From assembly GCA_964433555.1 (NCBI GenBank), contig CAYSRG010000005.1:10141-74140 (forward strand): DNA of 64,000 nucleotides. Direction: 5' to 3'. The DNA is from an uncultured Atribacterota bacterium (GTDB taxonomy: Bacteria > Atribacterota > Phoenicimicrobiia > Phoenicimicrobiales > Stramentimicrobiaceae). Every line of letters begins with the position of its first letter. Positions within the stretch are counted from its first letter, which is position 1. The translations under genes were made by a program, and so were the position numbers. The notes below the pieces were generated by a model, which saw nothing but the letters and a program-made list of their open reading frames with translations, searched no databases and was not told where the DNA came from. Shown here piece by piece: positions 8,370-62,815 of the stretch.

Positions 8370-8666
8370 ATAATAAATTCCTCTCTTAGTCTTAATAGCA
8401 TAATTTTATTCAGTAAATTGTTACCACTTGCCATTATCTTTTAGTTATACAATGGAAATTCTTCCCCTTGAAAATCTCTAAAATTATTCTTCAGCTCGAT
8501 ATGAATTAATCCTTTTTTACTGAATATGTTTAAGCAATATAACTTCTTACTTTGCATATCTGTAAAATATTCAGTTATTATATCATAATCTTTCTGCTAA
8601 AACTATTTTGCTAGAGTATTAATAAATGCTAAATAAGTAATAAATATATAGTTAAACAATAATTTT

Positions 8667-40379: not shown

Positions 40380-40433
40380 TAATCTAAATCAATAATAAGG
40401 AATAAAATCAGCATGAGTGCATATTATAACTAA

Positions 40434-40474
40434 GTTAAAAAGGGCTATACCTATTCTTACCAGTATAGCCCTGA
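40434..40474 (-). terminator. intrinsic terminator downstream of focA
   Basis: 10-bp perfect stem agggctatac/gtatagccct (40441-40472) with 12-nt loop. On the minus strand it is followed by TTTTT. Confidence 0.6.
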
Positions 40475-40511
40475 ATTCATTTAATTATTTCTGTTCTATA
40501 TGTTTTATATG

Positions 40512-41384: not shown

Positions 41385-41417
41385 CTTAGTATCCTCCTTT
41401 TTTGATAATATTTATTT

Positions 41418-44192: not shown

Positions 44193-44223
44193 TTTAATTT
44201 TATTTCAATCCTTTCTTTCAATA

Positions 44224-47200: not shown

Positions 47201-47253
47201 GACATACAAGAAGTACCATGACATAGAAGAAGCTGGATTCTTATATTATTCAT
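44224..47253 (-). CDS. fusion protein: Trx-like [2Fe-2S] domain + NuoF/HydB-like flavoprotein + GltD/NfnB-like NAD(P)H oxidoreductase
   Basis: 1009 aa. N-terminal Cx4C..Cx3C. NuoF motifs (GRGGAGFPTGLKWE, FMN/NADH site). Cys-rich 4Fe-4S region. C-terminal two Rossmann GxGxxG (IIGGGPSGL, VIGGGNSAID) as in glutamate synthase small subunit. Confidence 0.8.
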   Translation of the reverse strand: MNNIRIQLLLCHGTSCMSNGSVRVREALEVALKEANLEKEVEIITTGCMGICELGPIMVVYPDGVFYQQLKPEDAREIVQEHILKGRVVQRLFYKKPKTEELVAMIEDIDFFKLQRKIARRNCGIIDVNTIDDYIGADGFMALGKALTEMTPQQVIDEIKKSGLRGRGGAGFPTGLKWEFAARASGKQKYILCNADEGDPGAFMDRSMLEGDSYSVLEAMMIGGYAIGANQGYIYVRAEYPLAIERLKIAIKEMRNHQLLGKNILGTGFDFDVEIRMGAGAFVCGEETALMRSIEGKRGEPRPRPPFPANKGLFESPTVLNNVETLANIPYIILYGAENFASVGTEKSKGTKIFALAGNINNTGLIEVPIGITLGEIVYNIGGGIPGNKKFKAVQIGGPSGGCIPAQHLNTIVDYETLKELGAIMGSGGLIVMDEDTCMVDIARYFMEFIQDESCGKCTPCREGTRVMLEILTRICEGKGKMEDLDTLEELSYRIKDTALCGLGQTAPNPILSTLRYFRHEYIEHIRDKKCRAGVCAELVYAPCNNSCPASVNVPAYLAYTKEGQYKKAMQAHLRTNPFPAVCGRVCPAFCESRCRRKDIDDAINIRAVKRFMADQVDNYLDCFPEKNNKNGKKVAIIGGGPSGLSNAYFLTMLGYETTVFEAQPKAGGMLTYAIPSYRLPKNIVEKEIQALVDYGVKIRTNTRIGEDITLDQLRKEGYQAFYISAGAWDCIMPEMDNLDDSRIFSGLEFLSKFNRKEKLDIGKEVIVIGGGNSAIDAARTAKRLGAKVTIVYRRTREEMPADEAEVNEAEREGINISLLQNIKSVKSNKDSLEVELVNMKLGNYDASGRRRPIEIKESTFIKKVDCLILSIGQKPAISDLFHNEEIIINRDQTIPTEKGVTKIQDVFAGGDVALGPATVVEAIGEAQNAAEAIDFYLTGKKRAYPWRIKDPINVDFDPEADPVDYARSQVHLLPIQDRGVHNEVEKTWNKEITCRESSRCLRCEYRED

Positions 47254-47275
47254 AATTAATCTACTCCTTATTAAA

Positions 47276-47773
47276 CTATTTGTATCTCTCTAAAATTGCG
47301 TCTAATTTACTGGGAGTTAACCGACCATGAACTTCATTGTCAACCATAATAACTGGAGCCATTCCGCATGACCCAAAACAACGTTGTTCTCCTAAAGTAA
47401 ATCTCAGATCTTCTGTTGTTTCGCCTATCTTTATACCCAATTTATTTTCTAATGCCTCCAGAATCTTTTTAGCACCTCTGACATAACAAGCTGTTCCCAT
47501 ACAGATTGTAATAGTGTGCCGACCTACAGGCTGTGTTTTGAAATAAGAATAAAATGTAACTACTCCAAATACTTCACTAACAGAAATATTCATCTCCTCA
47601 GCAACGAATTCTTGGACTTCTGAAGGTAAATAACCAAACAAGGATTGTGCTTTATACAAGACTGGGATTAAATAGCCCTTTTTCTCTTTATTATCTCTAA
47701 TAAAACTCCCTAATTCCTGGTACTTTTCTTCAACAGTGCATTCATCATTTTTAATGATAGCTGTTTCACTCAT
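47276..47773 (-). CDS. NuoE/HydC-like thioredoxin-fold [2Fe-2S] subunit
   Basis: 165 aa. Cx4C (ICMGTAC) and Cx3C (CFGSC). Confidence 0.8.
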   Translation of the reverse strand: MSETAIIKNDECTVEEKYQELGSFIRDNKEKKGYLIPVLYKAQSLFGYLPSEVQEFVAEEMNISVSEVFGVVTFYSYFKTQPVGRHTITICMGTACYVRGAKKILEALENKLGIKIGETTEDLRFTLGEQRCFGSCGMAPVIMVDNEVHGRLTPSKLDAILERYK

Positions 47774-48141
47774 TATTTTTTCCCCTTTGAAAATAAATAT
47801 TTTTCTACTACTCTATTATTTAAAACATGTTCATTAAAAATTATCCTTGCTGCCTCTACATCAACATTGCGATAAGTTACCGGTCTATCTTCTTCTACAT
47901 ATACATGAATCATAGGTTCTTGGGCGCAAAAACCAAAACATCCTGAAGCAGTAATAATAATATCCGTTTTTTTGCTTTTTTCAATCAATTCCAAGAATTC
48001 ATTCATTGTTTCTCTAGCCCCAGCAGCTATTCCACAACTACCCATTCCTACTACTATCTTGACACGATGCTTTCCCGATCTAAGCTTTAAATCTTTCTTT
48101 ACCTTCTCCCGCATTATCTTTAGTTCTTCAAAATTTTTCAT
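47773..48141 (-). CDS. small thioredoxin-like ferredoxin-fold protein (HydD-like; only 3 Cys)
   Basis: 122 aa. GSCG ... GCFGFC. Resembles the N-terminal domain of HydB. Confidence 0.5.
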   Translation of the reverse strand: MKNFEELKIMREKVKKDLKLRSGKHRVKIVVGMGSCGIAAGARETMNEFLELIEKSKKTDIIITASGCFGFCAQEPMIHVYVEEDRPVTYRNVDVEAARIIFNEHVLNNRVVEKYLFSKGKK

Positions 48142-48199
48142 AGCTCCTCCTCTCCAAACATTAATTTATATTGAATAATATTAATACCTTAAAAATAAG

Positions 48200-48736
48200 T
48201 TACCTAATATCTATTTTTTTAAATTCTTTTTGTGATACCTCATAAATATGTTTTCTTATATTTATATAATTTTTTAATCCCTTAGCAATTTCATTTCGTA
48301 ATTCCAGGAAATCTAAAATCAGTTCCTCTCTATCCTCTTTGGTAATAAATAATTTAAGATTAATCTCCGGCCAGGCAAAAAATATATCTGTAAAAGTCCA
48401 GGCCAAATCACCAAAGGGTTTGGCATCAATATGAGACATGTCTATCTTAAATTGAAGAGCAGTCCCTCCTTTTTTATTTATCCTTCTTATCTTTAAATAT
48501 CCGCCGGTATCCTCTGCCGTTCTTTTTAATAAGGGGAGACCCAATCCAACCCTTCTGGTCTTCCTGGAAGTTATAAAAGGATCTAATACTTCCTGCCCAA
48601 TAATTCCTTTCCCATTATCGGAAATGCTACAAAAAAAAATACTTTTAGTATAAGTTATTTTCACAATAACTTCATTAGCCCCGGCATTAACTGAATTTTC
48701 TATAATATCAAAGAAATGGTCCGCTATATTTTTCAT
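48200..48736 (-). CDS. GHKL/histidine-kinase-like ATPase domain protein
   Basis: 178 aa. N-box ENSVNAG, G1 DNGKGI, G2 GLGLPL. Confidence 0.65.
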   Translation of the reverse strand: MKNIADHFFDIIENSVNAGANEVIVKITYTKSIFFCSISDNGKGIIGQEVLDPFITSRKTRRVGLGLPLLKRTAEDTGGYLKIRRINKKGGTALQFKIDMSHIDAKPFGDLAWTFTDIFFAWPEINLKLFITKEDREELILDFLELRNEIAKGLKNYINIRKHIYEVSQKEFKKIDIR

Positions 48737-49487
48737 TTCCGGTCTTCCTTAGAAAATCTTGCAATGAGCTAAAATCTATTATATGATTATCATCTTTTAC
48801 TTCCAAAAAAAATGTTCCAATATCTTCCAAAAAGTGGCTATCTGAACCGCTAATTACTGGGAATCCTTCCAGTAAGTCTCCAATTTCATATTTCTTATTT
48901 ATCCATTCAAATCTTGATACTTCTACTGCATCAAAATTACTAGTAGGATCTAAAAAACCTATCTGGCTCATTAAACTGCAATAATCTCTATTAATATGAG
49001 CCGGTATTGCTATTCCACCCAGAAAATGAATGTAGTCAATTAACTCATCTAAGCTGATTTGTAAAGCATTTTGCCTTAACATATAATCTATTTCAACTAT
49101 CTCTCCTTTTTCATCATAGATTAGCTGGTCACCAAAAAAAGAAGGTTTATTTTTCATTTTTGGCAGACAATCACTTATCTTCTTCTCCATCTCTCTCATA
49201 CTATATTCATCTGGGAAATAACCCAATATATGAATCTCTTCCCGGGTAGTCAGCTCAATCCCGAGAATAATATTAACTGAGCTTATTTTATTAATTTTTC
49301 TAATTAAAATCGAATGGGCAACCGCATTGTGATCAGTAATAGCAATTAAGTTTAGTCCGCTTTTTTCTGCCTTTTTCAATATGTTTTGTGGTGACATAAT
49401 ATTTTCCGCGCACGCTGAAAGAGAAGAGTGAATATGTAAATCAATCTTGATCAGATTTGCCTCCCAGCATCTGGTACAATAGACCAC
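48708..49487 (-). CDS. PHP-domain metal-dependent phosphoesterase
   Basis: 259 aa. IDLHIHSSLS...ITDHN His motifs of the PHP family. Confidence 0.75.
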   Translation of the reverse strand: MVYCTRCWEANLIKIDLHIHSSLSACAENIMSPQNILKKAEKSGLNLIAITDHNAVAHSILIRKINKISSVNIILGIELTTREEIHILGYFPDEYSMREMEKKISDCLPKMKNKPSFFGDQLIYDEKGEIVEIDYMLRQNALQISLDELIDYIHFLGGIAIPAHINRDYCSLMSQIGFLDPTSNFDAVEVSRFEWINKKYEIGDLLEGFPVISGSDSHFLEDIGTFFLEVKDDNHIIDFSSLQDFLRKTGNEKYSGPFL

Positions 49488-49785
49488 ATATTTGAAAAGA
49501 ATTTTTTTCAGTTCTCAATAGATTAATCTGTTCTTCCCTGGCTTTTTCTATCAATTCCTGGTTTATTTCTACATTATTGGTAAAGATAATTGCCCTTATA
49601 TCCTTGATCAGCGCTACAGCTATACTATTTTTATGTGCTTGGATAGTAATCCATACACTATCATTGCTGGCATGGGCAATAACATCTGACATTAAATCTC
49701 CACAATAACCTGTTTTGATTTCCTCATCTGAACAGAATACAATCTTCTCTAAGGAACATCTATTAATAATCTGGCTTAATTTCAT
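49441..49785 (-). CDS. DRTGG-domain protein
   Basis: 114 aa, DRTGG-like fold (GDLMSDV...). Paired with the CBS gene. Confidence 0.55.
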   Translation of the reverse strand: MKLSQIINRCSLEKIVFCSDEEIKTGYCGDLMSDVIAHASNDSVWITIQAHKNSIAVALIKDIRAIIFTNNVEINQELIEKAREEQINLLRTEKNSFQICGLLYQMLGGKSDQD

Positions 49786-49787
49786 CT

Positions 49788-50720
49788 CTATCCTCCTATA
49801 TGGATAACTGCTTTTAAAATAGTACCGGTTTCCATAGAAGATTCTAATTCTAGATGATCAGCGCATTTTTTTATATTGGGTAAACCCATGCCTGCACCAA
49901 ATCCTAAAGCCCTGATCTGTTCAGAAGCAGTTGTAAAACCCGGTTTCATTGCTTCTTCTATATCCGGAATACCTGGACCATAATCAACGGCAGTAATAAT
50001 AATACTATTCTGTTCCAATTCTACTGAAATATATCCCCCTAAGGAATGGATACTGATATTCATCTCTGCCTCATAGCAAATAATGGCAACTCTTCGCATA
50101 ATCTGTTTATCTATGGTCATTTTTTGTAAATAAGTTCTTATGATACTGGCTACTCTGCCAGCATTATCAAAGTCAGCTTTTTTGACTTCAAAACGAAGTG
50201 GCTTCTGTGGAGTATTCTTAATTAAGGTATCGGATAGCTGATAATTTCTGTTTTCTTTTTGTTCCACTTTCTCGGCAATGGTTTGAATAGTTAGCAGCAG
50301 TCTATTTAAAATATCTCCCATAGTTATGATACCAACTATTTTACGGGAATGGACATTCCCTGTTACCGGCAAACGACCAAATTTATATCTTTCAAACTTT
50401 TTTATAGCTGAAACCAAAGAATAATTTTGAGGAATGGTTATCACATCTTTAGTCATATAATCTTTTACCGTATCGTTCACATAATCTTCATCCAGAGCAG
50501 TAATTACATTATCAATACTGACAATACCAATAATATTTTTCTGTTCATCCAGGATGGGAACTCCTGAAATTCTATTTTGTTTCAAAGATAATTGAATCTC
50601 ACGAAAGGTAGCCTGCTCACCAAAAAATATTACCTTACTGGTCATAGCATCTTTCACTTTTAACTCATAAACCAGCTCATTGGCTAAAGTTAATTTTTCT
50701 CTGGAATGTAAAATTGTCAT
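49788..50720 (-). CDS. CBS-pair + GHKL ATPase domain protein
   Basis: 310 aa. Two CBS motifs, C-terminal HATPase-like G-boxes (GPGIPD, GFGAGMGL). Confidence 0.7.
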   Translation of the reverse strand: MTILHSREKLTLANELVYELKVKDAMTSKVIFFGEQATFREIQLSLKQNRISGVPILDEQKNIIGIVSIDNVITALDEDYVNDTVKDYMTKDVITIPQNYSLVSAIKKFERYKFGRLPVTGNVHSRKIVGIITMGDILNRLLLTIQTIAEKVEQKENRNYQLSDTLIKNTPQKPLRFEVKKADFDNAGRVASIIRTYLQKMTIDKQIMRRVAIICYEAEMNISIHSLGGYISVELEQNSIIITAVDYGPGIPDIEEAMKPGFTTASEQIRALGFGAGMGLPNIKKCADHLELESSMETGTILKAVIHIGG

Positions 50721-51064
50721 TTCTTCTCTTCACTAATAATTGCCTCAACAATTGCTCGACAGGCATCAAACATTGTTTTGGAGGTCATTAGAAGTGGGAT
50801 ACGGTGGGAACGGGCTAGACCAATTGCTTCCTGTTCAGGAGCTTTCCCCCTCACAAAAACCACACCTACCCCTCCGGCAATCTCAGCGGTTCTTACCACC
50901 TGCTGAGAGGTTAATCCAGTTAATAATAAAAAATCGTCCTTGCTTAAAGCAAGAACATCACTTAATAAATCACTGGCTGCAAATTCCTCAATATTCTGGT
51001 CTAGCAAGTTTTCTCCAGTCAAGACCTCAGCATCTAATATGTTGACAATATCTTTTATTTTCAT
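50717..51064 (-). CDS. DRTGG-domain protein
   Basis: 115 aa, second DRTGG paralog. First gene of the FDH operon. Confidence 0.55.
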   Translation of the reverse strand: MKIKDIVNILDAEVLTGENLLDQNIEEFAASDLLSDVLALSKDDFLLLTGLTSQQVVRTAEIAGGVGVVFVRGKAPEQEAIGLARSHRIPLLMTSKTMFDACRAIVEAIISEEKK

Positions 51065-51163
51065 AATATACTCTCATGAATATAAAGTTTAAATAAATAG
51101 AAAAGGTAATAACTAAAATAAATAAAAATTAATTCTTATATTACTTTCTACCAAAAGATAAAT

Positions 51164-51181
51164 TTGTGAAAAATATCACAA
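51164..51181. promoter_or_regulatory. Rex operator (Rex box)
   Basis: TTGTGAA-AAAT-ATCACAA, one mismatch to the Firmicutes Rex consensus TTGTGAAnnnnTTCACAA. Lies between rex and the first gene of the FDH operon. Confidence 0.6.
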
Positions 51182-51317
51182 AGCACACCAAGTCATTTTA
51201 TCACATGCCCTTAATATATGTCAAACTCGTCCTTAAATTTTTGGCCATAAATTATTTCGCCCTCTAGTTTTATTTTAAATACATCACTCCTGTTGGCAAA
51301 TAATAATTTTACAAAAT

Positions 51318-51911
51318 TTAAGATAAGTAATAGACCAGCTTTTCAAGTTCAATAGCAATATCAATATGTTTAATTGATATTCTCCGGGGATGTTTAATAC
51401 TAATGGGAGCAAAATTAAGTATTGACCTGACTCCTCCAGCTATCATCTGGTCAGCTACTTCCTGAGCCGATTGGGAAGGTACTGTAATAATACCAATTCG
51501 TATTTTCTGCTCTTTGAGAAATTTTTCCATGTCCTGGATATGTCTTATCCTGATATGGCCAATTTTTTTACCTACTTTAGCCATATCATTATCAAATACT
51601 GCTTTTATGATGAAGCCTCTTTTGGAGAATCCTTTATAACGAAGGAAGGCAGTCCCTAAATTGCCAGCACCAGCGAGCACTAAATTCCATTTTTGATTTG
51701 ATTTCAATATCTCCTTTAATTTATTAAATAATTCCAGGACAGGATAACCAATTCCCCTTTTCCCAAATTCACCAAAATAAGAAAAGTCTTTTCTAATTTG
51801 ATGGGGATTAATACCAGTTATATCTGACAGTCTGGACGAGGAAATTGTGGAAAACTCATTAACTCTCTTTGCTTCAATCAAAGATTCTAAGGTTCTATGA
51901 TAAATTGACAA
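51318..51911 (-). CDS. rex: redox-sensing transcriptional repressor Rex
   Basis: 197 aa. Winged-helix ISS..L....G....QIRKDFSYFGEFG, Rossmann GAGNLG NADH-binding domain. Confidence 0.85.
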   Translation of the reverse strand: MSIYHRTLESLIEAKRVNEFSTISSSRLSDITGINPHQIRKDFSYFGEFGKRGIGYPVLELFNKLKEILKSNQKWNLVLAGAGNLGTAFLRYKGFSKRGFIIKAVFDNDMAKVGKKIGHIRIRHIQDMEKFLKEQKIRIGIITVPSQSAQEVADQMIAGGVRSILNFAPISIKHPRRISIKHIDIAIELEKLVYYLS

Positions 51912-53160: not shown

Positions 53161-53607
53161 GTGTCCAAAAATTGTCTATTAGGGATAGGTAACTCTTTAA
53201 GGTCTGATGATGGTGCTGGTTCTTTTCTTGCCCAACATTTCAATCATCATAACTGGATGGTGATAGACGGAAAATCGGCTCCAGAAAACTACACTTCAGT
53301 TATTAAAAACATTCATCCTGAACTGTTGGTAATTATCGATGCTGTTGAAATGAATCTTATTGCAGGTAGTATTAGAATAATCCCCGTAGAAAAAATTATT
53401 TCCCTGCAACTTTCCACTCATTACCTGTCACTGTCCTATCTCATAGAATACTTGGCTCCTGATTGCCATAAAATCATACTTATTGGTATTCAACCTCTTT
53501 CCACTGAAATGAGTGAAAATTTAAGTAAACCAGTGCTAAAGGCTTGCTATCAACTTATAAACTTACTGAAAAAGAATCAACTTAAGGCTATTCCAATTTT
53601 CACCTAA
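53161..53607 (+). CDS. [NiFe]-hydrogenase maturation endopeptidase (HycI/HyaD family)
   Basis: 148 aa. LLGIGNSLRSDDGAGSFLAQHF...IDA motifs of hydrogenase maturation proteases. Convergent with the Mbh operon. Confidence 0.8.
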   Translation: MSKNCLLGIGNSLRSDDGAGSFLAQHFNHHNWMVIDGKSAPENYTSVIKNIHPELLVIIDAVEMNLIAGSIRIIPVEKIISLQLSTHYLSLSYLIEYLAPDCHKIILIGIQPLSTEMSENLSKPVLKACYQLINLLKKNQLKAIPIFT

Positions 53608-53932
53608 TCCTTTCTCCTTTTACTCTCCTATTGACTAGAAAGAATTATAAATCTCAAACTGACTTAATGTATAGGCAAGCACATACCTATATCACTGATT
53701 GCTTTAAGAACTACTATACTAGACTAAACTTTTATGAAATTGCTTTTTATTCTCCTCTTTTCTTTTTTTGCAATATTTTATTTAATCTTAATAATCTAAG
53801 TAACACAACTTACCACTTTGAACATAGAGTATAAAATAGTCAATTAATCTATACCAATTTTTGTGGTAAAGTCATTTCATCTAACCATAAGACAGTCTTT
53901 CAAGATGTTAGTAATGGCTATATAAAAATCAA

Positions 53933-53975
53933 ATACTAAGATACTTCATAAAAATGTAGCATCTTAGTATTTTAT
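53933..53975 (-). terminator. putative intrinsic terminator of the Mbh operon
   Basis: 12-bp stem aaatactaagat/atcttagtattt with 18-nt loop. On the minus strand it is followed by GATTTTTATAT. Confidence 0.45.
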
Positions 53976-54016
53976 AAAACAATCATTATACTTCATCTTA
54001 TCTTATTTAATTTAAA

Positions 54017-54424
54017 TTATTGGACAATCATCTCTGAATCAAAACGATCTTCATTTGCTAGAAGAAAATTTTCCGACATACTCAGACAATTGACCGGACA
54101 AACATCATTACACTGTGCACAAAATATACAGCGGTCAATTCTGATTTTAATCTTTTTTTCTTCCGGAAGAAATTCAATCGCCCTGGAAGGACATACTCTA
54201 ACACATAAGCGACATCCGATACATTTTTCCCTATCATATACTATTTTCCCTCTAAATTTCTCCGGTACTGTTACCGGTGAGTTTATTTTCACCTGGCCAT
54301 CCTGGACTTTTTTAATAAGATCAGTAACAGTTGTTTGGCTGGGATAATATTTCACCGGGAAACAATTTGTTGCAGGTCTATGAAAAAGTTGTTTGATTAA
54401 CTCAAACACTATTGGTGTCGGCAT
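54017..54424 (-). CDS. mbhN: Mbh subunit N: NuoI-like 2x[4Fe-4S] ferredoxin
   Basis: 135 aa. CIGCRLCVRVCP and CIFCAQCNDVCP motifs. Confidence 0.85.
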   Translation of the reverse strand: MPTPIVFELIKQLFHRPATNCFPVKYYPSQTTVTDLIKKVQDGQVKINSPVTVPEKFRGKIVYDREKCIGCRLCVRVCPSRAIEFLPEEKKIKIRIDRCIFCAQCNDVCPVNCLSMSENFLLANEDRFDSEMIVQ

Positions 54425-54638
54425 TCTTTTTCACCTCATTTCATTTATATTACCCGTAATCAGGGGAGATAGACCTTGAAACCACTTAAGTAAATATGTT
54501 TAAAAAAATTTCTTTCATCTTATAATCAGTATATCCAGGGAAATTATTCCCCTTAGGAATATCTGAACACTTCTTCTATATGGATTATGTAAATAAATTC
54601 GCTTTAGCAAATATCAAAACTTCAAAGAAATTTCGATA

Positions 54639-55646
54639 TTAGATAATATAATCAACGGCTATCAATAATAAACCCATCAGACCAACTATAGAAAGAAATA
54701 CTAAATAAGCAACTGAAGCTTGGTCAATTTTTAAACGTGCTATAGCAACTCTAATAAGGGTTGCTTCAAAAAATATGACAATGAATAATTTAAAGAAAAA
54801 GAATAACGTATCGACAATATAGGCAAAAAAACCACTTAATGAAAATAAATGGGCAATATTATATGGGAAAAATAAAACAACAGTCAAGGCTCCCATTATT
54901 ATCATTTTTACTGCATTAGCCAGTTCAAATAAGGCTAAGTTCCGACCAGAATACTCCACCAAGATGCCTCCTGCCAGTTCGGTTTCTGCCTCAGGAATAT
55001 CAAAAGGAACAATGGATAACTCTGCCGGGGTTACAATAGCTAAGGTAAAGAGCAACAATATGGCGCCGATGAAACCCAGCGGGCCAACTAAACTCCAGAT
55101 AGGATTAGCACTTAAAACTGCTAAGGAAAAAACCTTTAATCCGGGGTAGGCTAAATTTAATCTCCACCCTAAAACAACAATGGTAGTAACCAGAGGGAGT
55201 TCATAACTCATCATCAAAACCATCTCTCTTTGTGCTCCAATACTGGCATAAGTAGATCCTGAAGAAAAACCACCAGCTACCAGGGCAATTGCTGGAATAG
55301 CCAGCAGATAGGCAATTAATATCAAATCACCAGAATTTCCAAACAATGCTGGCAGGGAACCATAAGGAATATAAAATAAAATGGTAATTGTGGAAACCAG
55401 AGCCAGCATTGGCGCACCATTAAAAATCCAGGGAATAGCATTCTCGGGAACGATATTTTCCTTTATCATTAGCTTAAAAAAATCAAGAAAAGGCTGTCTA
55501 ACTGGGGGCCCTACCCGGGATTGCATCATAGCAGCTAATTTACGATCAATGCCCTTATAAAATAAACCTACCAATATACCAATTACGGCAATTATTAGAG
55601 CGCCAACAATTTTGAGAATAAAGATTAAAATACTGCTCCCACTCAT
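54639..55646 (-). CDS. mbhM: Mbh subunit M: NuoH/HycD-like membrane subunit
   Basis: 335 aa, 8 TM. Complex I subunit H-like. Overlaps mbhL by 4 bp. Confidence 0.85.
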   Translation of the reverse strand: MSGSSILIFILKIVGALIIAVIGILVGLFYKGIDRKLAAMMQSRVGPPVRQPFLDFFKLMIKENIVPENAIPWIFNGAPMLALVSTITILFYIPYGSLPALFGNSGDLILIAYLLAIPAIALVAGGFSSGSTYASIGAQREMVLMMSYELPLVTTIVVLGWRLNLAYPGLKVFSLAVLSANPIWSLVGPLGFIGAILLLFTLAIVTPAELSIVPFDIPEAETELAGGILVEYSGRNLALFELANAVKMIIMGALTVVLFFPYNIAHLFSLSGFFAYIVDTLFFFFKLFIVIFFEATLIRVAIARLKIDQASVAYLVFLSIVGLMGLLLIAVDYII

Positions 55647-56866
55647 CTTAACATCCTCCTGGTTTTTTCGATACTTAACTTTCTTAATTCTTCTCTAGTT
55701 AACACCTGTTTTTTATAGGTATTAGAATCAACCAGTGTTACTCTATCCATACAACCAATGCAGGGATCAATGGAAGCTATTACAATAGGAATATCTGCTA
55801 CTTCCTGCCTCTGTAACATTGGCATCCAGGACATTAGATTATTATAAGTCGGTGCCCTTGCTTTCCACACCTCTGGATTTTCCGATTCATTTAATTTTAC
55901 ATAGTGAATAACTTCACCACGTGGAGCTTCGTGTCTGCCCACACCTTCTCCCTTTGCTTTTTTCAAAACACCTAATAACTTGGCAATTTTTGGCTCTGAT
56001 AATATTTCTCCATCGGGTAAGTTGTTGATACAATATTCTATGATTTGAACAGACTGAAAAACCTCTAATATTCGAACAATAATACGGTCAAAAACATCTC
56101 CATTTACTTCACCGGAATAACTATCCGGTGTGATAGCTTGAACATCAAAATCAGCATAAGCCGAATATGGCTGATCCTGCCTGATATCTTTTTTTACTCC
56201 TGAAGCTCTGGTGGTAGGGCCAACACTGGCTAAATTGAGTGCTTCCTCATAGGTTAAAACACCAACATTCTTAGTCCTTAAGGCGATACTGGGATCTTTG
56301 AGAAAAACATCTTCTAGTTTCTGATAAACATCCTTATAATATTGTAAAGTTTTTCTAATCTGAGGAATTTGTTGCTCTGTAATGTCCCTTCTGACTCCAC
56401 CAATCATAAACATCCCATAATTTACCCGGTTACCAGTAAGCATTTCCAGTAGATCCATTACCTCTTCTCTCACTTTCCAGGAAAGGAATAAGACTGAATC
56501 AAAACCTAACTCATGTGCGGCTACTCCTGCCCATAAAATATGAGAATGAATTCTTTCTAACTCAGAAATAATAACCCTAATATATTCTGCTCTGGGCGGT
56601 ACCTCTATACCGGCAGCGTTTTCAACAGCACGACAAAAAGCAAAGGGATGAGAAGCTGAACATATCCCACAAATTCTTTCTGCTAGATATATTATTTGAA
56701 TAATATTTCTATTTCTACCCATAAATTCGATACCCCGATGATTATCACCCGGTGCTAAATCTACCGACTGAATTCTTTCGCCGGATATCTCAAAATTGAA
56801 GGTCATTGGTTCTTCCAATGACGGATGAATAGGCCCGATAGGTACCTTATAAGTAGATTTACTCAA
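55643..56866 (-). CDS. mbhL: group-4 [NiFe] hydrogenase large subunit (NuoD-like)
   Basis: 407 aa. N-terminal Ni-Fe ligands RICGICSASH. C-terminal DPCIGCMDR followed by a ~33-aa extension, a protease substrate. Confidence 0.9.
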   Translation of the reverse strand: MSKSTYKVPIGPIHPSLEEPMTFNFEISGERIQSVDLAPGDNHRGIEFMGRNRNIIQIIYLAERICGICSASHPFAFCRAVENAAGIEVPPRAEYIRVIISELERIHSHILWAGVAAHELGFDSVLFLSWKVREEVMDLLEMLTGNRVNYGMFMIGGVRRDITEQQIPQIRKTLQYYKDVYQKLEDVFLKDPSIALRTKNVGVLTYEEALNLASVGPTTRASGVKKDIRQDQPYSAYADFDVQAITPDSYSGEVNGDVFDRIIVRILEVFQSVQIIEYCINNLPDGEILSEPKIAKLLGVLKKAKGEGVGRHEAPRGEVIHYVKLNESENPEVWKARAPTYNNLMSWMPMLQRQEVADIPIVIASIDPCIGCMDRVTLVDSNTYKKQVLTREELRKLSIEKTRRMLR

Positions 56867-56877
56867 CTGTAGTCACC

Positions 56878-57393
56878 TCAACTTTCCTTTGGAACGAGTT
56901 CGTCCAAGCCTTTTTGATCTTTTCGGAAGGGAAAAACATTTTTAGGAAAATCGTATGGTAAAAAGATATTTCGCATATCCGGAAGTCCTATGAATTCTAC
57001 TCCCAGCATCTCTTTAATTTCCCTTTCGGTTGTTTGAGCTCCAGGAATTAGATCAGTTATACTCTCGATAGCTGGATTCTTTCTCTCTAATCTCACCTTG
57101 ATATTAATTGAAATTTCTTTAAATTTCTCTCCATAAAAGAGGGAAAAAAGATAAACCAGTTCAATGGTTTCACCGGTATCATGGCCGGAAATAATAGCAA
57201 TGTGAGGATATTGTAAGCTCATTAATAGCTTTACAGTATCCCTGAATTTTTCTCTTTTCACCTCTAACCAGATATTATGAAACTCTTCCTGCTTGATGCC
57301 TGCCTTTCTGGATTCAAGGCGAATTCCTAAAATGTTTTCTTTCAAATTTTCTTCTAAAAATGATAATAACTCTTGGGCATTATAATATTCCAT
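56878..57393 (-). CDS. mbhK: Mbh subunit K: NuoC-like
   Basis: 171 aa. Complex I 30-kDa subunit fold. Confidence 0.8.
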   Translation of the reverse strand: MEYYNAQELLSFLEENLKENILGIRLESRKAGIKQEEFHNIWLEVKREKFRDTVKLLMSLQYPHIAIISGHDTGETIELVYLFSLFYGEKFKEISINIKVRLERKNPAIESITDLIPGAQTTEREIKEMLGVEFIGLPDMRNIFLPYDFPKNVFPFRKDQKGLDELVPKES

Positions 57394-57421
57394 ATTATCA
57401 CCTGAACCTTCTCATTTTATT

Positions 57422-57892
57422 TTAAGCACTAACCTCTTCTATTTTCTTTTCAATCTCTGCACCAGAGGAGCCTCTTAATCTCTCTAATTTTAACCAGGCT
57501 TTCAAGACCCCATTAATTATTGCTTCTGGCCTTATTGGACATCCAGGTACATATACATCCACAGGAATATGCTTGTCCACTGGTCCCACTATATTATAAG
57601 AATCATAAAATACGCCGCCACTTGTACCACAGGTGCCAACTACAATAACAGCTTTGGGATCAGGAGTCTGTTCATATATCAGTTTCAACCTTGGTAGCAT
57701 CTTTCGATTGACAGGACCAGTCACTAATAGTATATCGGCATGCTTTGGGCTTCCCACTAGTTTTATACCAAATCTTTCCACATCATATCTTGGTGTTAAT
57801 AAGGCCACAATTTCAATATCACAACCATTACAAGAACCTGTATTTAAATGAAATACCCATAAAGAACGATCTAAATACTTATCTAATTTCAT
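57422..57892 (-). CDS. mbhJ: [NiFe] hydrogenase small subunit (NuoB-like)
   Basis: 156 aa. CNGCDIE ... GTCGTSGG ... PGCP proximal-cluster Cys. Confidence 0.85.
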   Translation of the reverse strand: MKLDKYLDRSLWVFHLNTGSCNGCDIEIVALLTPRYDVERFGIKLVGSPKHADILLVTGPVNRKMLPRLKLIYEQTPDPKAVIVVGTCGTSGGVFYDSYNIVGPVDKHIPVDVYVPGCPIRPEAIINGVLKAWLKLERLRGSSGAEIEKKIEEVSA

Positions 57893-57896
57893 TGTG

Positions 57897-58238
57897 CTAA
57901 CTCACCCCAACTATAATAAATATAATAGCCATTACTAAAACAATCCATCCACTATAATCATTAATGTCCCCGGTATGTAGTTTAATCAGGGGCTCATAAT
58001 AATTCTTTAAAGCCTCAGTGAATCCCCAGTAGATATGGCTTGCTCCGACATGAGAGTCTTCTTTACTTACTTCTGGATTGCCAGAAAGGAAAGGTTTTGT
58101 TTGATTGGTATCTTTTTTATAGCTTCCTTCACCTTTATTTCTTAGCCATAAAACACCAATTCCAACTATAATAGTAACTAAGACCCATATTATCGCATTC
58201 CAGTAACCACTTCCTGTTTCTAATAAACCAATATTCAT
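57897..58238 (-). CDS. mbhI: Mbh subunit I: small membrane protein
   Basis: 113 aa, 2 TM. At the Pyrococcus MbhI position. Confidence 0.5.
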   Translation of the reverse strand: MNIGLLETGSGYWNAIIWVLVTIIVGIGVLWLRNKGEGSYKKDTNQTKPFLSGNPEVSKEDSHVGASHIYWGFTEALKNYYEPLIKLHTGDINDYSGWIVLVMAIIFIIVGVS

Positions 58239-58239
58239 A

Positions 58240-59808
58240 CTATATTCCTCCCAATATTGTTGCGGTATAGTGAGTCTGATTAATCAAAGCCATTACTGCA
58301 GGATGAACAATATGTTTAACAATGAGATCGGGAAATAATCCAAAAAATACAATGATGCAGGCTAAGGTAGCCATTGCCACTACCATACTTTTAGGAACCT
58401 CCTGTACTGACTTATATTGTTCCAGTTTAGGACCTAAAAAGGCACTATGAAATACTTTCACAAAAGAAGCCAGGGTTAAAATACTAACCAGCATAGCAAT
58501 AATTGATAATAAAGGATTAAATTGATAGACTGACTCATAGATAATTAACTTGGAGGCAAAACCATTAAAGGGTGGTATTCCAGCAATAGCTGCTGCACCG
58601 ATTATAAAGAAGATAGTAGTGTACATCATGTTATTAGCTAAACCACCCATCTTATTTAAATCTCTGGTACCTGTCCTATAGAATAAGGCACCAGCAGTTA
58701 AAAATAATAAACCTTTATACATAGCATGGTTCATAATATGAAAGATTCCACCTTCCATTGCTTTTATTCCAAAATTTTCTAAAGCTACCGGATTTGCTAA
58801 AACAGCCAGGCCTACTCCCACTCCTAAAAGCATATAACCAGTCTGAGAAATGGCGTGATAAGCCATTAAACGCTTGATATCCTTCTGAATAATAGCCATA
58901 GTAACACCGATAAACATAGAAAGTATACCCAGAATAATAATAATCCAACCAACTGTTACCGTATTTAAAGTCACATTATAGAGAGAAAATGTGGTTCTAA
59001 AAAGAGCATAAAGGCTAGCTTGACTGGCAGCAACCAGAACCATAGTAATCGCTGCAGGGGCTTCCGAATAAGCATCTGGTGTCCACATATGCATGGGCAC
59101 TGAACCTGCCTTCATTGCCAAAACAGATACTAAAAGTACTAAAGCTATTTTATCAAGCTGGGTAAATTGCATAACACTGGCAATGGTTGCCATATTCAAA
59201 ACATCATATTGACCATAAAATAATCCAATAGCAAATAGTACCATTAAGGCAGATATGGAACTAACTACCATATATTTAAATCCTGCCTCAGCAGGTTCAC
59301 CTGCAAGAGTACTCCGAAAGGAAATCAGCGCTACTGAAGCAATAGAAGCGATCTCTAAAAAAACAAAAAAGTTGAAAATATCTCCGGTTAATTCCATACC
59401 AAACATCCCGGTTGCCAATAAGAGTAATAGTGTGTAATACTTTTCTAACCCACTATGTTGTTCCATAAAAGAAATTGAATAAATAGCAGCTAAAAAAGAT
59501 ACAACAGCGGTTATCAATCCCATAAATATTCCCATTCCGTCAATATGGAAAATAATTCTGATGGGTACCGTATATCCAGATGGTAATGTTAAACCTGCCT
59601 CAGTTCCCCCAAAAACATAAATCAAAGCGCCATTAGTTAAGACCTGATTAGCTATAAATATAATCAATAATAACGTTAGTCCTAATATAAAGGATACAAA
59701 CCAACTTATTGTTTTACGATTAAAACGACCTATAACAGGAGTAACAAAAGCTGTTAATAGAGGCAAGGCAATTACTAAAGCAGGTGCATGCATCAAAATG
59801 CTACTCAT
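58240..59808 (-). CDS. mbhH: Mbh subunit H: MrpD/NuoL-like antiporter subunit
   Basis: 522 aa, about 14 TM. Complex I L/M/N antiporter-family motifs. Confidence 0.85.
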   Translation of the reverse strand: MSSILMHAPALVIALPLLTAFVTPVIGRFNRKTISWFVSFILGLTLLLIIFIANQVLTNGALIYVFGGTEAGLTLPSGYTVPIRIIFHIDGMGIFMGLITAVVSFLAAIYSISFMEQHSGLEKYYTLLLLLATGMFGMELTGDIFNFFVFLEIASIASVALISFRSTLAGEPAEAGFKYMVVSSISALMVLFAIGLFYGQYDVLNMATIASVMQFTQLDKIALVLLVSVLAMKAGSVPMHMWTPDAYSEAPAAITMVLVAASQASLYALFRTTFSLYNVTLNTVTVGWIIIILGILSMFIGVTMAIIQKDIKRLMAYHAISQTGYMLLGVGVGLAVLANPVALENFGIKAMEGGIFHIMNHAMYKGLLFLTAGALFYRTGTRDLNKMGGLANNMMYTTIFFIIGAAAIAGIPPFNGFASKLIIYESVYQFNPLLSIIAMLVSILTLASFVKVFHSAFLGPKLEQYKSVQEVPKSMVVAMATLACIIVFFGLFPDLIVKHIVHPAVMALINQTHYTATILGGI

Positions 59809-60152
59809 CCTCTTAACCTCCTTATCTCATCTGTATTTAATGTGCCATATTTTTGGTAAAGAATCATGGCAATAGAAAGAATCAACGCAGTTGTAGCAAC
59901 TCCTATAACAATACTGGTCAAGGTTAAGGCTTGAGGTGTAGGAAGAACCATTTTGACTCCTTCTGGCGCCTGTGTATAAATTGGCGCTATGGCTCCCTTT
60001 CGGTATCCTAAAGTAATTAAAAATAAATTGGTACCATTTTCAATTAGTGTTATTCCGATAGCAATCTTAATTAGATTTTTCTTAAAAATCAGGGTATAAA
60101 TTCCTAATCCAATCAAAATTACCACTGCCACAAAGGGAAAATTTCCAATCAT
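59805..60152 (-). CDS. mbhG: Mbh subunit G: MrpC/NuoK-like
   Basis: About 115 aa from internal Met MIGNF. The ORF-track start at 60209 overlaps mbhF. Confidence 0.65.
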   Translation of the reverse strand: MIGNFPFVAVVILIGLGIYTLIFKKNLIKIAIGITLIENGTNLFLITLGYRKGAIAPIYTQAPEGVKMVLPTPQALTLTSIVIGVATTALILSIAMILYQKYGTLNTDEIRRLRG

Positions 60153-60153
60153 T

Positions 60154-60633
60154 TCACGGCTTCTCCTTCTTCTGTATAGTTTCAGCGGCAACAGACATGG
60201 TAAGAACAATTACTCCTAATGCTGCCAGCACTTCTAAACCCACTGCCATATTCATCAGCGTTATAGTACCACCTGTATTTAGATCACCTGGATTGACACC
60301 GATTGTAGCTGGTGAACCGAATAATCCGCCACTGTTGGAAAGAAAATTATAAAAAAAGGTTGCACCTAATCCAAAAAATGCAAACGTGATAAAAAGAACC
60401 AAACCGGTACTTTCCAGCAAAGAAAGAATATCTTTTGCTAAAAAGCTTTGAGTATTTTTATTGCCATAGGTTACTAACAATAAAGCAAAAGCTGATGCTA
60501 CTATCGCTCCTCCCTGAAAACCTCCTCCAGGAGTGAGATGGCCATGTATTATGACATAAAATCCATAAACAGCGATAAAACCATAAATCAATGTAGTTAT
60601 GGTTCTAACAATACGAGACATTTCTTCTATCAT
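60154..60633 (-). CDS. mbhF: Mbh subunit F: MrpB-like
   Basis: 159 aa, 4 TM. GGGFQGGAIVAS motif of MnhB. Confidence 0.7.
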   Translation of the reverse strand: MIEEMSRIVRTITTLIYGFIAVYGFYVIIHGHLTPGGGFQGGAIVASAFALLLVTYGNKNTQSFLAKDILSLLESTGLVLFITFAFFGLGATFFYNFLSNSGGLFGSPATIGVNPGDLNTGGTITLMNMAVGLEVLAALGVIVLTMSVAAETIQKKEKP

Positions 60634-60896
60634 TTTGCCACCTCCCTAAATAATGCCACAATACCTACCACTGCTGTAAATAAAACAGTTGCCTCTCCCA
60701 GGGTATCAAAACCACGGTAATCGAAAACTATGGTAGTTACTACATTATTAGCTCCTGTTTCAGCCTGAGCATTTTCTATATAATAGTCATCCATTTCACT
60801 AAAAGCTGGCTCCCCAAAAGGTCTCATACCAAAGGCTGCTAGAATCATAAAAGCCACAAATAATATAAAAGCAATACCAAATATTGATTTTTTCAT
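60630..60896 (-). CDS. mbhE: Mbh subunit E: small membrane protein
   Basis: 88 aa. Confidence 0.5.
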   Translation of the reverse strand: MKKSIFGIAFILFVAFMILAAFGMRPFGEPAFSEMDDYYIENAQAETGANNVVTTIVFDYRGFDTLGEATVLFTAVVGIVALFREVAK

Positions 60897-60907
60897 AATC
60901 TCACCTC

Positions 60908-61150
60908 TTACTTCTTTGTTGCCCTGATGGCAAAAATATAAATTGCCATAGTCAAAGCTGCCCCAATTCCTGCTTCTGCTATTGCTACATCAGGAGCATG
61001 CAGAAGATAAAATTCTAAGGACAAAAGCAAACTGGCTGCAGCCAGGGCAATAACTGAAGGTAATAAATCCCTTAGTACTACAGCTAAAATTGATGCAATA
61101 ATCATAACAACCAGTACGGCAATATGAGCAATACTTACTAATGGGCTCAT
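60908..61150 (-). CDS. mbhD: Mbh subunit D: small membrane protein
   Basis: 80 aa, 3 TM. Confidence 0.5.
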   Translation of the reverse strand: MSPLVSIAHIAVLVVMIIASILAVVLRDLLPSVIALAAASLLLSLEFYLLHAPDVAIAEAGIGAALTMAIYIFAIRATKK

Positions 61151-61509
61151 TTCAGCTTTGCCTCCTTTAATTGATCAATCACTGCCTGTTTAGGCATCAC
61201 TCCACTGCGGTAAGCTGCCCGAGCAATAGCATGAGCTCCAGTAGGATTGGTTATAATCAAACAAACCAAAGCTATTATGGTATGCAATGCCAGAACTCCG
61301 AATTTAGAATCACCGTTTACTTTCCAAAAATAAAAACCAAAAATGATAACAGACAATGATGTGAATATAGAACCAAACGTAGTGCATTTTGTAGCAGCAT
61401 GCAATCTGGTGTAAACATCAGGAAATCTCATTAAACCAATGGAACCCAATCCATTGAAAAATATTCCTATTAATAAAAATAAAAATAAAATAATCGATAA
61501 AATGGTCAC
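61147..61509 (-). CDS. mbhC: Mbh subunit C: MrpG-like
   Basis: 120 aa. MnhG-like N-terminal motif (GLMRFPDVYTRLHA). Confidence 0.7.
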   Translation of the reverse strand: MTILSIILFLFLLIGIFFNGLGSIGLMRFPDVYTRLHAATKCTTFGSIFTSLSVIIFGFYFWKVNGDSKFGVLALHTIIALVCLIITNPTGAHAIARAAYRSGVMPKQAVIDQLKEAKLK

Positions 61510-61781
61510 TTATCTTTTGCCCTCCTCTCAAGATATTTAGCAATATACAGAGTAGCAATATATGATAATAAGGCATATACTATTGCCACATCGATATAAA
61601 TAACTTCTTCAAAAGCTGCACCAAATAGAATCATTCCTGCTACAATTAAAGTATTAATGGTATCCATAGCCACAACACGATCAGGTACAGTGGGACCGGA
61701 AATCAAACGAAACAGAGATATTAGAATAAATACTGTTAACAATACTCCTGTAATTAAAAAATAGTTCAACAATTGAGTCAT
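61506..61781 (-). CDS. mbhB: Mbh subunit B: MrpF-like
   Basis: About 91 aa from MTQLL. ATGA overlap with the mbhA stop. The ORF-track start at 61820 is probably too long. Confidence 0.65.
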
Positions 61782-62287
61782 TCTGCTATCCTCCTCGCCC
61801 ATTCGGGAAAAGTACCGCAAATATCTTCAATAGAAGGTTTCAAATTAGTGACATTAATCCAATGGATATAAAGATCATTATTCTTTTCATCTATATCCAC
61901 ACTTAGTGTTCCAGGAGTAAGGGTAATAGAGTTTGCCAGTAAGGTTATGGCAGCATCGCTCTTTAATTTGGGAGATATTTTTACAATACCTGGGTTGATT
62001 TTACCTGTAATTACGCGGTAAGCAACATCAATATTTGCTTTGGCCATAGCATAAAAAAAGGGGCCGACCAGATAAAACAAAAAAATAACCCATTTTAATG
62101 GGTTTAAAAGGTGGTAACGTTTTTTCTGAAATAATACTCTGGCAGAGATAATAGTTACAATAAGACCAACAATTAGGGCGGCTATTATTTCATTTTGACT
62201 CCATAATCCCAAAACTTCTCCTTGACTGGCAGTTAAAAATAGATAAGCGAAAAAACTCAAAACAAAAGTGATAATAAAACTTATCAT
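61778..62287 (-). CDS. mbhA: Mbh subunit A: MrpE-like
   Basis: 169 aa. LTPGTLSVD motif typical of MnhE. Confidence 0.7.
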
Positions 62288-62727
62288 TACATCACCTCGC
62301 TATAGGTCTGTATTTATTGATTGACTATAATGGGTAAGGTTTACTAAAAAAAATCTTTGATTTATTGTTGTTTTACTATTTCTTATTATCAAAATAGATT
62401 TGTTAAAGAACTTACCAAAATATATCATTCTTACAATTTTATGATTCATTTCTATTTTACAAAACACTGGCAAAAGTATAGCACATTTTTACCGGATGAT
62501 GCAATTTCTTTAGCAAAATTTTTTATTCTCTTTTTCTCTAGATTCCTGTTTATCCTGTACCGCATCTCTCCACTCATTATTTTCTCTTTCTTCTTACTTA
62601 CAGTAAAAATTATGACCTTATCTATCTTAAATCTTTAATAGTAAAACAAAAAAATAAAAAGGGCACCAACGTCCCCTTCATAACTATCATTATAATAAAA
62701 TTTTAATTTCTCTTAAAATAGAATCTA

Positions 62728-62815
62728 TGGTGCCGGGAGGGGGATTTGAACCCCCACAAGCAATATGCCTACCAGCCCCTCAAGCTGGCGCGTCTACCTA
62801 TTCCGCCATCCCGGC
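62728..62815 (-). tRNA. tRNA-Leu (anticodon GAG)
   Basis: 88-nt class-II tRNA on the minus strand. Anticodon loop UUGAGGG, long variable arm, CCA encoded. Confidence 0.8.

Follow-up and report, generated by a model that had tools for sequence, protein, structure and literature searches.

A bacterial operon laid out like that of an archaeal membrane-bound hydrogenase (Mbh) raises three questions: whether its genes encode a true hydrogenase, what such an enzyme would do for its host, and how the host came by it. The genes at issue, mbhA to mbhN, lie at 54017-62287 on the minus strand of a stretch of 64,000 nucleotides (the window; positions 10,141 to 74,140 of contig CAYSRG010000005.1, GenBank assembly GCA_964433555.1) from an uncultured bacterium of the Atribacterota. 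We read them as the chromosomal mbhA-N operon of the JS1 lineage (class Phoenicimicrobiia), encoding an Mrp-linked Mbh that would couple ferredoxin-driven H2 evolution to ion translocation, and we put the probability of this reading at about 0.8. The operon is an already known system in JS1, and since Mbh has had a role in published JS1 metabolic models since 2016 it is not in itself new biology. What is added here is the correction of the host to Atribacterota, the class-wide vertical inheritance of the operon together with its neighbourhood, and the finding of two positions, both proposed to act in ion coupling, at which the Mbh of this clade depart from the archaeal enzyme of known structure.

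The operon and the identity of its enzyme

Fourteen intact open reading frames (ORFs), all in the same direction and running from 62287 down to 54017, carry Pfam families in MbhA-N order according to the ORF list and Pfam searches, and the public gene calls agree with both the content and the order. The initial annotation had recognized here the exact gene order of Pyrococcus furiosus, and this is borne out by matches to Pfam, to NCBIfam and to solved structures. The genes, the adjacent maturation gene and the more distant hyp genes are as follows, with E-values in brackets.

61778-62287, minus strand: mbhA, MrpE-like, 169 residues (Pfam MNHE, 3e-36)
61506-61781, minus strand: mbhB, MrpF-like, 91 residues (Pfam MrpF_PhaF, 2e-20; 6cfw_B, 1.9e-24)
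61147-61509, minus strand: mbhC, MrpG-like, 120 residues (Pfam PhaG_MnhG, 4e-26; 6cfw_C, 1.5e-35)
60908-61150, minus strand: mbhD, 80 residues (Pfam MbhD, 5e-17; 6cfw_D, 8e-18)
60630-60896, minus strand: mbhE, 88 residues (Pfam MbhE, 2e-13)
60154-60633, minus strand: mbhF, MrpB-like, 159 residues (Pfam MnhB, 3.5e-25)
59805-60152, minus strand: mbhG, MrpC/NuoK-like, 115 residues (Pfam Oxidored_q2, 9e-26; 6u8y_G, 1e-32; 6cfw_G, 2.8e-25)
58240-59808, minus strand: mbhH, single MrpD/NuoL-like antiporter subunit, 522 residues (Pfam Proton_antipo_M; 6cfw_H, 7e-112)
57897-58238, minus strand: mbhI, Mbh-specific membrane subunit, 113 residues (no Pfam family; 6cfw_I, 6.5e-7)
57422-57892, minus strand: mbhJ, NuoB-like small subunit, 156 residues (Pfam Oxidored_q6, 5e-35)
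56878-57393, minus strand: mbhK, NuoC-like, 171 residues, not fused to the large subunit (Pfam Complex1_30kDa, 1e-26)
55643-56866, minus strand: mbhL, [NiFe] large subunit, 407 residues (Pfam Complex1_49kDa and NiFeSe_Hases; 6cfw_L, 3.7e-120)
54639-55646, minus strand: mbhM, NuoH-like, 335 residues (Pfam NADHdh, 3e-63; 6cfw_M, 1.4e-56)
54017-54424, minus strand: mbhN, NuoI-like subunit for two [4Fe-4S] clusters, 135 residues (Pfam Fer4 families)
53161-53607, plus strand: hycI-type maturation endopeptidase gene, 148 residues (Pfam HycI, PF01750, 4e-18)
35970-38285, minus strand: hypF (this and the next three assigned by Pfam on the public gene calls)
35724-35939, minus strand: hypC
34645-35727, minus strand: hypD
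33375-34385, minus strand: hypE

Adjacent mbh genes either overlap by four nucleotides (ATGA or GTGA) or stand 1-28 nt apart, the junction between mbhM and mbhN being the sole exception. Two starts called for a choice. That of mbhB is most likely the ATG at 61781, which overlaps the mbhA stop codon in an ATGA, and not the TTG at 61820 of a longer ORF, and that of mbhG is most likely the ATG at 60152, internal to a longer ORF with a TTG at 60209; both are preferred because they match the public gene calls, in which MbhB has 91 residues. The ninth gene product is identified as MbhI by the NCBIfam equivalog NF053600 (122.4 bits against a cutoff of 95), and MbhH and MbhN pass NF006240 (732 against 662 bits) and NF006221 (155 against 124 bits) respectively.

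The large subunit retains the ligands of a Ni-Fe site. In its L1 motif, RICGICSASH (residues 64-73; 56648-56677), Cys66 and Cys69 align to Cys68 and Cys71 of P. furiosus, while Cys369 and Cys372 of the L2 motif, DPCIGCMDR (residues 367-375; 55742-55768), align to Cys374 and Cys377; the equivalents of P. furiosus Glu21, His75 and Arg320 are also kept. Exactly 32 residues follow DPCIGCMDR, and these align with the extension of Escherichia coli HycE that is cleaved by HycI. In MbhJ the proximal [4Fe-4S] cluster has its four cysteines (21, 24, 88 and 118), and eight of the ten cysteines of MbhN fall within two CxxCxxCxxxCP motifs (Cys68-78 and Cys99-109). The maturation protease, whose gene is convergent with mbhN, belongs to the equivalog TIGR00142 (122.2 bits against a cutoff of 119.1) and has the motifs GNSLRSDDGAG, IIDAV and STHYL. 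The initial annotation had placed a dedicated endopeptidase at this position, as both PF01750 and TIGR00142 confirm, and had argued for a true hydrogenase rather than a relative of Mbx or complex I; that argument holds as well, since both motifs that it quoted are present exactly, together with the C-terminal extension, the Fe-S cysteines and HycI.

Comparison with solved structures points the same way. MbhL finds the P. furiosus large subunit first (6cfw_L, 3.7e-120 and 405 bits), followed by HycE (7z0s_E, 1e-80 and 275 bits), NuoD of complex I (about 1e-56) and the large subunit of MBS (6u8y_L, 1e-40 and 143 bits), and MbhH scores 378 bits against 6cfw_H and 180 bits against the MBS H subunit; this closeness is one judged among solved structures, the matches including no structure of group 4b, 4c, 4e or 4g. 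For 11 of the 12 subunits compared (out of 14) the matching 6CFW chain is the top structure, and the exception, MbhG, has the MBS chain 6u8y_G slightly ahead of 6cfw_G. Judged from sequence, then, the operon encodes a true Mbh-type group 4 [NiFe]-hydrogenase of 14 subunits, Mrp-linked and with the architecture of the P. furiosus enzyme. A formate hydrogenlyase of the Hyc/Hyf type (group 4a) was also considered and is rejected: K (171 residues) and L (407 residues) are separate, MrpE/F/G-like genes are present, and the operon is free of formate dehydrogenase (FDH) genes.

Electron donor, direction and ion coupling

By analogy with P. furiosus, ferredoxin-driven H2 evolution coupled to Na+/H+ translocation is the most likely function. 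Electrons would enter from reduced ferredoxin, a product of fermentation, most likely at MbhN with its two [4Fe-4S] clusters, and move on through the cluster of MbhJ; at the Ni-Fe site of MbhL they would reduce protons to H2. The free energy would be relayed by MbhM, MbhI and MbhH to the Mrp-like MbhA-G, which would move H+ and Na+, and H2 evolution would conserve energy by virtue of this transfer. As for maturation, the Ni-Fe site of the MbhL precursor would be assembled by HypCDEF, encoded 16 kb away, after which the HycI protease would cut off the 32-residue C-terminal peptide. Ferredoxin is kept as the most likely donor because the architecture is that of the HydDB group 4d archetype, with K and L unfused, MbhI present, the A-N order, and no FDH, carbon monoxide dehydrogenase (CODH) or HycB gene in the operon. 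For JS1 bacteria such an enzyme is probably the main means of discharging reduced ferredoxin, with H2 as the product and an ion gradient as the gain, and it would underpin their syntrophic and fermentative life in oil reservoirs, in digesters and in sediments below the seafloor.

Residue roles in proton and Na+ transfer have been proposed in a molecular-dynamics study of the archaeal enzyme (PMC8679088), and 17 of the 20 residues are kept here. The conserved sites include Glu143, Lys225, His346, His350, Lys354 and Lys409 of MbhH, Glu141 of MbhM, Glu69 of MbhD, Asp35, Asn38, Thr39 and Ser68 of MbhB, and Thr42, Thr86, Asn87 and Pro88 of MbhC. Relatives were collected by an MbhL scan of one genome per species, from which the best 80 loci (numbered with the prefix L) were kept, and the conserved sites of MbhL, MbhH, MbhM, MbhD, MbhB and MbhC are shared across at least 40 of the related loci. 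The three that differ are Lys256 of MbhH and Asp37 and His41 of MbhG. Lys256, in transmembrane helix 8 (TM8), is the lysine proposed to be central to proton pumping (PMC8679088); it is replaced by Ser263/Gln264 in the sequence VAASQASLY (region of residues 260-267), with a deletion of two residues, and an S/T-Q-A-S-L-Y at this position is invariant throughout the clade of bacterial and Thermoplasmata sequences. MbhG has Glu38 and Asn42 in place of Asp37 and His41, a pair resembling that of MBS. Both changes occur in all sampled 14-subunit Mbh from Atribacterota, Bipolaricaulota, Thermotogae, Marinimicrobia, Lentisphaerae and Thermoplasmata (L001-L078), and it is this clade-wide loss of the TM8 lysine, with the MBS-like pair in MbhG, that may be of specialist interest. 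It is tentatively possible that the 14-subunit Mbh of the bacteria and some Thermoplasmata couple H2 evolution to ions differently from the P. furiosus enzyme, the only one characterized structurally; if so, the two changes might alter the H+/Na+ stoichiometry or make the enzyme a pure Na+ pump.

The choice of donor brings in the genes that lie beyond hycI, namely the following.

51318-51911, minus strand: rex, 2 kb from mbh
51164-51181: near-consensus Rex operator TTGTGAAAAATATCACAA, with one mismatch, downstream of rex and fronting the DRTGG/fdh operon
38963-51911, minus strand: the rex and fdh region as a whole, with genes for DRTGG, CBS-HATPase, DRTGG, two unknown proteins and HATPase, and then NuoE onward
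47276-47773, minus strand: NuoE
44224-47253, minus strand: NuoF-GltD-like fusion, 1009 residues
41418-44192, minus strand: FdhA, 924 residues, with NuoG-like N-terminal Fe-S domains

FocA, MobA and FdhD are encoded after FdhA on the same strand. An enzyme that respires formate, as in HydDB group 4b, might take its electrons from this FDH and so act as an Mrp-linked formate hydrogenlyase, a reading that we consider unlikely. HydDB splits the Mrp-linked enzymes into a ferredoxin-coupled 4d and a formate- or CO-respiring 4b, and the JS1 enzyme is named 'NiFe Group 4b' in the phylogeny of PMC11227167; our literature search found no paper joining Atribacteria, hydrogenase and group 4d. It has been suggested, moreover, that Fdh and Mbh together turn formate into H2 and CO2 (PMC6281690, PMC10826368). 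Some 10-15 kb downstream of mbh, and on its strand, are fdhA, focA, mobA and fdhD, and the start of the fdh operon (nuoE, nuoF) is linked to mbh at most adequately flanked Atribacterota loci; this linkage, however, is accounted for equally well by indirect coupling through ferredoxin. The gene layout also argues against a formate-coupled complex, since FdhA is encoded in a separate operon with NuoE and the NuoF-GltD-like fusion, a signature of soluble NAD(P)/ferredoxin-linked enzymes, and the convergent hycI, a SPOR gene, rex and the Rex operator stand between the two operons. The mbh operon itself encodes no HycB/CooF-type connector and no FDH or CODH subunit, and it has the unfused K and L and the A-N order of P. 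furiosus Mbh. From its sequence the fdh operon is probably that of a Rex-controlled, electron-bifurcating, soluble formate dehydrogenase. Its separate position and the soluble signature of its product suggest that Mbh and FDH are linked via the ferredoxin pool and not physically. The NuoEF-FdhA enzyme would be a probable further source of reduced ferredoxin for Mbh; with rex alongside, the two could form one formate/H2/ferredoxin redox-balancing unit in JS1. Rex control of mbh itself is rejected, there being no operator upstream of mbhA and the sole good one lying downstream of rex; the total of Rex operator matches does not exceed chance expectation.

Operation mainly in reverse, in which H2 would be taken up and the ion gradient spent, as in Ech, on reducing ferredoxin for CO2/formate assimilation by the reductive glycine pathway, seems to us quite improbable. 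The characterized archetype evolves H2, and JS1 bacteria have been inferred to be fermenters or syntrophs in need of an outlet for reduced ferredoxin (PMC6776118, PMC6281690), whereas PMC11227167 has the reductive glycine pathway draw its reducing power from the atribacterial hydrogenases. Physiological reversibility is given in the HydDB table for the Ech-type group 4e, though not for 4b or 4d, and the clade-specific changes in MbhH and MbhG could alter coupling; the sequence gives no indication of direction.

Several points weigh against a ferredoxin-driven, H2-evolving and ion-translocating Mbh. The published phylogeny (PMC11227167) assigns the enzyme to Group 4b (formate/CO-respiring), not 4d; MbhL is only 50 % identical to that of P. 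furiosus; MbhH is without the lysine proposed as central to proton pumping, and MbhG has a Glu/Asn pair at the proposed Na+/H+ coupling site; and hypA and hypB were not found in the 64-kb window. The electron donor, catalytic direction and ion specificity of the bacterial clade are, besides, extrapolated from P. furiosus.

Host and inheritance of the operon

Where the operon came from depends first on the identity of the host. Among the best 80 loci, those with an MbhL 73-90 % identical to that of the window are all labelled Atribacterota, save L017 ('bacterium') and L026 ('Methanomicrobiales'), and the nearest are from Candidatus Oleihabitans, Oleincola and Stramentimicrobium, of the class Phoenicimicrobiia (JS1) and family Stramentimicrobiaceae. 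A 100 % identical MbhL is present in public collections, and one that is 99 % identical is recorded at the National Center for Biotechnology Information (NCBI) as 'nickel-dependent hydrogenase large subunit [Atribacterota bacterium]'. We note that L026 and L017 have Atribacterota-type Mbh subunits and a convergent hycI, and that their MbhL nests inside the Atribacterota clade; their public labels are probably binning or labelling errors. The initial annotation had described a bacterium with Firmicutes-like core synteny. The gene orders in question are real (spoVG-glmU-prs-L25-pth-mfd and rpsF-rpsR-rplI-dnaB), but a Firmicute host is contradicted by the Atribacterota relatives and by diderm genes, and such gene strings do not identify the phylum. 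The diderm genes, at 464-10010 on the minus strand of the window, encode BamA (POTRA/Omp85), OmpH/Skp, a TolC-like outer-membrane efflux protein (OEP) and an RND pump with its adaptor, and a protein with an SLH domain is encoded just past the window on the same contig; these envelope genes fit the diderm, unusual envelope described for Atribacterota.

The operon is an old, vertically inherited trait of the JS1 class and not a recent import, as follows from the conservation of the operon and its flanks, the monophyly of MbhL and a host-like composition. In tblastn searches mbhA-N were found in order at every Atribacterota locus with enough flanking sequence, with MbhA 68-86 % identical across the Atribacterota loci, and a convergent hycI was found at 26 of 33 Atribacterota-type loci (L002-L032); wherever the flanks suffice, hycI accompanies the fourteen genes. 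At most adequately flanked loci, in both atribacterial subclades, the neighbourhood comprises a phosphoribosyltransferase gene (NAD salvage), mbhA-N, hycI, SPOR and rex, and continues beyond rex with DRTGG, CBS-HATPase, further small genes, nuoE and a nuoF-like gene; it was seen at none of the non-atribacterial loci. In a tree built by neighbour joining from 83 large subunits, rooted on HycE and sampled as the 80 best matches, the Atribacterota MbhL are monophyletic in 100 of 100 bootstraps, with a group of Bipolaricaulota, Thermotogae and Marinimicrobia as sister; sequences from Thermoplasmata and other archaea branch next and P. furiosus lies outside, although this deep branching is only indicative since the tree is a distance tree with a sample restricted to the 80 best matches. 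When the mbh genes were compared with 36 other genes of the window, their G+C content was 0.364 against 0.357 +/- 0.027 and their third-position G+C content (GC3) 0.281 against 0.274 +/- 0.023, and their codon-usage distance lay inside the range given by gene sets drawn at random from the host, with 12 % of those sets above the mbh value.

A recent transfer of Mbh from Thermococcales into a Firmicutes-like bacterium is therefore very improbable; the initial annotation had taken the operon to suggest horizontal acquisition. The resemblance of gene strings in the window to Firmicutes order, and the closeness of sequences from Thermoplasmata and other archaea in the MbhL tree, might have spoken for it; but the host is an atribacterium with diderm genes, its MbhL belongs to a clade found in every bootstrap replicate, which is sister to bacterial Mbh and excludes P. 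furiosus, the flanks are kept across the class, and the G+C and codon-usage check that had been suggested for transfer revealed no anomaly. Because those archaeal sequences are close in the tree, an ancient inter-domain transfer somewhere in the Mbh family is likely. Nor is Mbh restricted to Thermococcales, of which the initial annotation had called such modules typical: the 14-gene order also occurs at loci of Thermotogae, Bipolaricaulota, Marinimicrobia, Lentisphaerae and Dehalococcoidales, a close relative of MbhL is found in Synergistales, and MbhA-N of JS1 had already been published. The 14-gene Mbh is common in bacteria. Vertical inheritance of hydrogenases within each atribacterial class has also been reported (PMC11227167, published in 2024), and the absence of NiFe hydrogenases from Atribacter laminatus, an isolate of the OP9 class, is consistent with a class-specific trait.

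Many of the near archaeal relatives, mostly Thermoplasmata with an MbhL 61-64 % identical to that of the window, have only J-K-L-N. These loci are L058 (7878-13806), L036, L037, L039, L040, L044, L046-L049, L051-L056, L059 and L060, and further L065, L066, L072, L073, L075, L077, L079 and L080; the quartet of genes in L058 is flanked by hypE and hypF. MbhM, MbhH and Mrp-like genes were undetected within 10 kb at these loci, which on the evidence of their gene content seem to hold an Mbh-like hydrogenase module of four subunits, apparently with no membrane anchor.

Intergenic elements and comparison with known systems

The non-coding features around the operon are these.

62728-62815, minus strand: tRNA-Leu(GAG), flanked by mbhA and the phosphoribosyltransferase gene; a terminator-like hairpin follows it
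62449-62527, minus strand: conserved block upstream of mbhA, 76-93 % identical in L001, L002, L003 and L011
54425-54638, minus strand: atypical mbhM-mbhN spacer of 214 bp, with GAGGUGA, a strong Shine-Dalgarno sequence for mbhN, at its end
53928-53975, minus strand: candidate intrinsic terminator of mbh, a long perfect hairpin and then a U-tract, 40 nt past mbhN
53608-54016: mbhN-hycI spacer of about 410 bp, against 17-253 bp in most Atribacterota relatives

The block at 62449-62527 is the only piece of the 440-bp region upstream of mbhA that is kept in several relatives, and it may hold an extended -10 promoter, the candidate elements being TTGCAT (62504-62499), a spacer of 18 nt and TGcTATACT (62483-62475). 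A sigma-54 promoter upstream of mbhA was rejected, since the TTGCA element, judged by eye, is without the GG at -24; rpoN lies near mbh on the same contig. The hairpin at 53928-53975 has a folding energy of -27.9 kcal/mol (z -4.88), equalled by none of 200 shuffled sequences, and is probably the intrinsic terminator of the operon. The mbhM-mbhN spacer is 12-20 bp long in most Atribacterota loci, with four relatives at 30, 90, 201 and 520 bp, and the 214 bp found here are treated, from the sequence, as an apparent lineage-specific intergenic expansion; a repeat, a miniature inverted-repeat transposable element (MITE) or a structured element was rejected, as the sequence is unique, its fold is not significant (z -0.77) and it is not kept in relatives. 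A search for riboswitches and other RNAs in the 440-bp leader and in the mbhM-mbhN and mbhN-hycI spacers gave an Rfam match only to the tRNA-Leu.

According to PMC6776118, the presence of MbhA-N in JS1 goes back to a proposal of Nobu et al. (2016); that paper itself records the genes in most of its new JS1 metagenome-assembled genomes (MAGs), and the proposal is repeated in PMC6281690 and PMC10826368. Transcripts map to hydrogenases according to the main text of PMC11227167, and for a JS1 MAG in its Supplement 2 a column of per-gene values, taken without its header, is non-zero for 14 of the 14 mbh genes. That MAG has the same operon, hycI and flanks as the window (nicotinate/quinolinate phosphoribosyltransferase, triosephosphate isomerase (TIM), glyceraldehyde-3-phosphate dehydrogenase (GAPDH) and sigma-54), but hypA and oligopeptide-transporter genes are upstream of mbhA where the window has the tRNA-Leu, and both the mbhM-mbhN and mbhN-hycI spacers are longer in the window.

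Outside the phylum, a 14-gene Mbh has been described in Acetothermia (Ran1, PMC6092417), with predicted H2 evolution driven by reduced ferredoxin and ion translocation. The Mbh of Bipolaricaulota/Acetothermia and Thermotogae form the sister clade, with the same gene order and the same S/T-Q in MbhH and Glu/Asn in MbhG; their MbhL are 61-66 % identical to that of the window, and the hycI, rex and fdh neighbourhood is not conserved there.

HycE is a NuoC-D fusion, and the formate hydrogenlyase (FHL) cluster to which it belongs has no Mrp module and includes HycB and FdhF. The E. coli FHL architecture therefore does not match the operon, although HycE (7Z0S, group 4a) is the second-best structure for MbhL (1e-80) and has a C-terminal extension of equal length and very similar sequence that is processed by a HycI-type protease.

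Sulfane-sulfur reductases of the Mbx/MBS type have lost the Ni-Fe cysteine ligands, have a duplicated H subunit and carry M before J. The Hun complex (bioRxiv 10.1101/536078, group 4g) is, like the present enzyme, an Mrp-linked group 4 [NiFe]-hydrogenase reported from JS1; it has CYCC in L2 and the AsrAB-like HunAB, in contrast to the CIGC and the MbhA-N set of the window. We give almost no credence to a product of this operon that is the Mbx/MBS sulfane reductase, a relative of complex I or the Hun complex, for all that MbhG scores better against 6u8y_G and has the MBS-like Glu38/Asn42 and that Hun was described in Atribacteria: the Mbx/MBS and complex I-like readings are excluded by the four Ni-Fe cysteines, the C-terminal extension, HycI, hypFCDE and the structure scores (405 bits against Mbh and 143 against MBS for MbhL), Mbx also by the single H subunit and the position of M between L and N, and Hun is excluded by the CIGC of L2 and an operon without HunAB-like genes.

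The closest known system in architecture is the Mbh of P. furiosus (PDB 6CFW), the archetype of HydDB group 4d. It has the same 14 subunits in the same order, with K and L unfused, a single MbhH, and MbhI, and shares the metal ligands, most of the proposed proton and Na+ residues and an MbhL C-terminal extension that is removed by a protease. The window departs from it in its bacterial host, in the 214-bp spacer before mbhN and in a protease gene that stands convergently beside the operon, as well as in an MbhL of only 50 % identity and in the replacement of the TM8 residue Lys256 of MbhH and of Asp37/His41 of MbhG.

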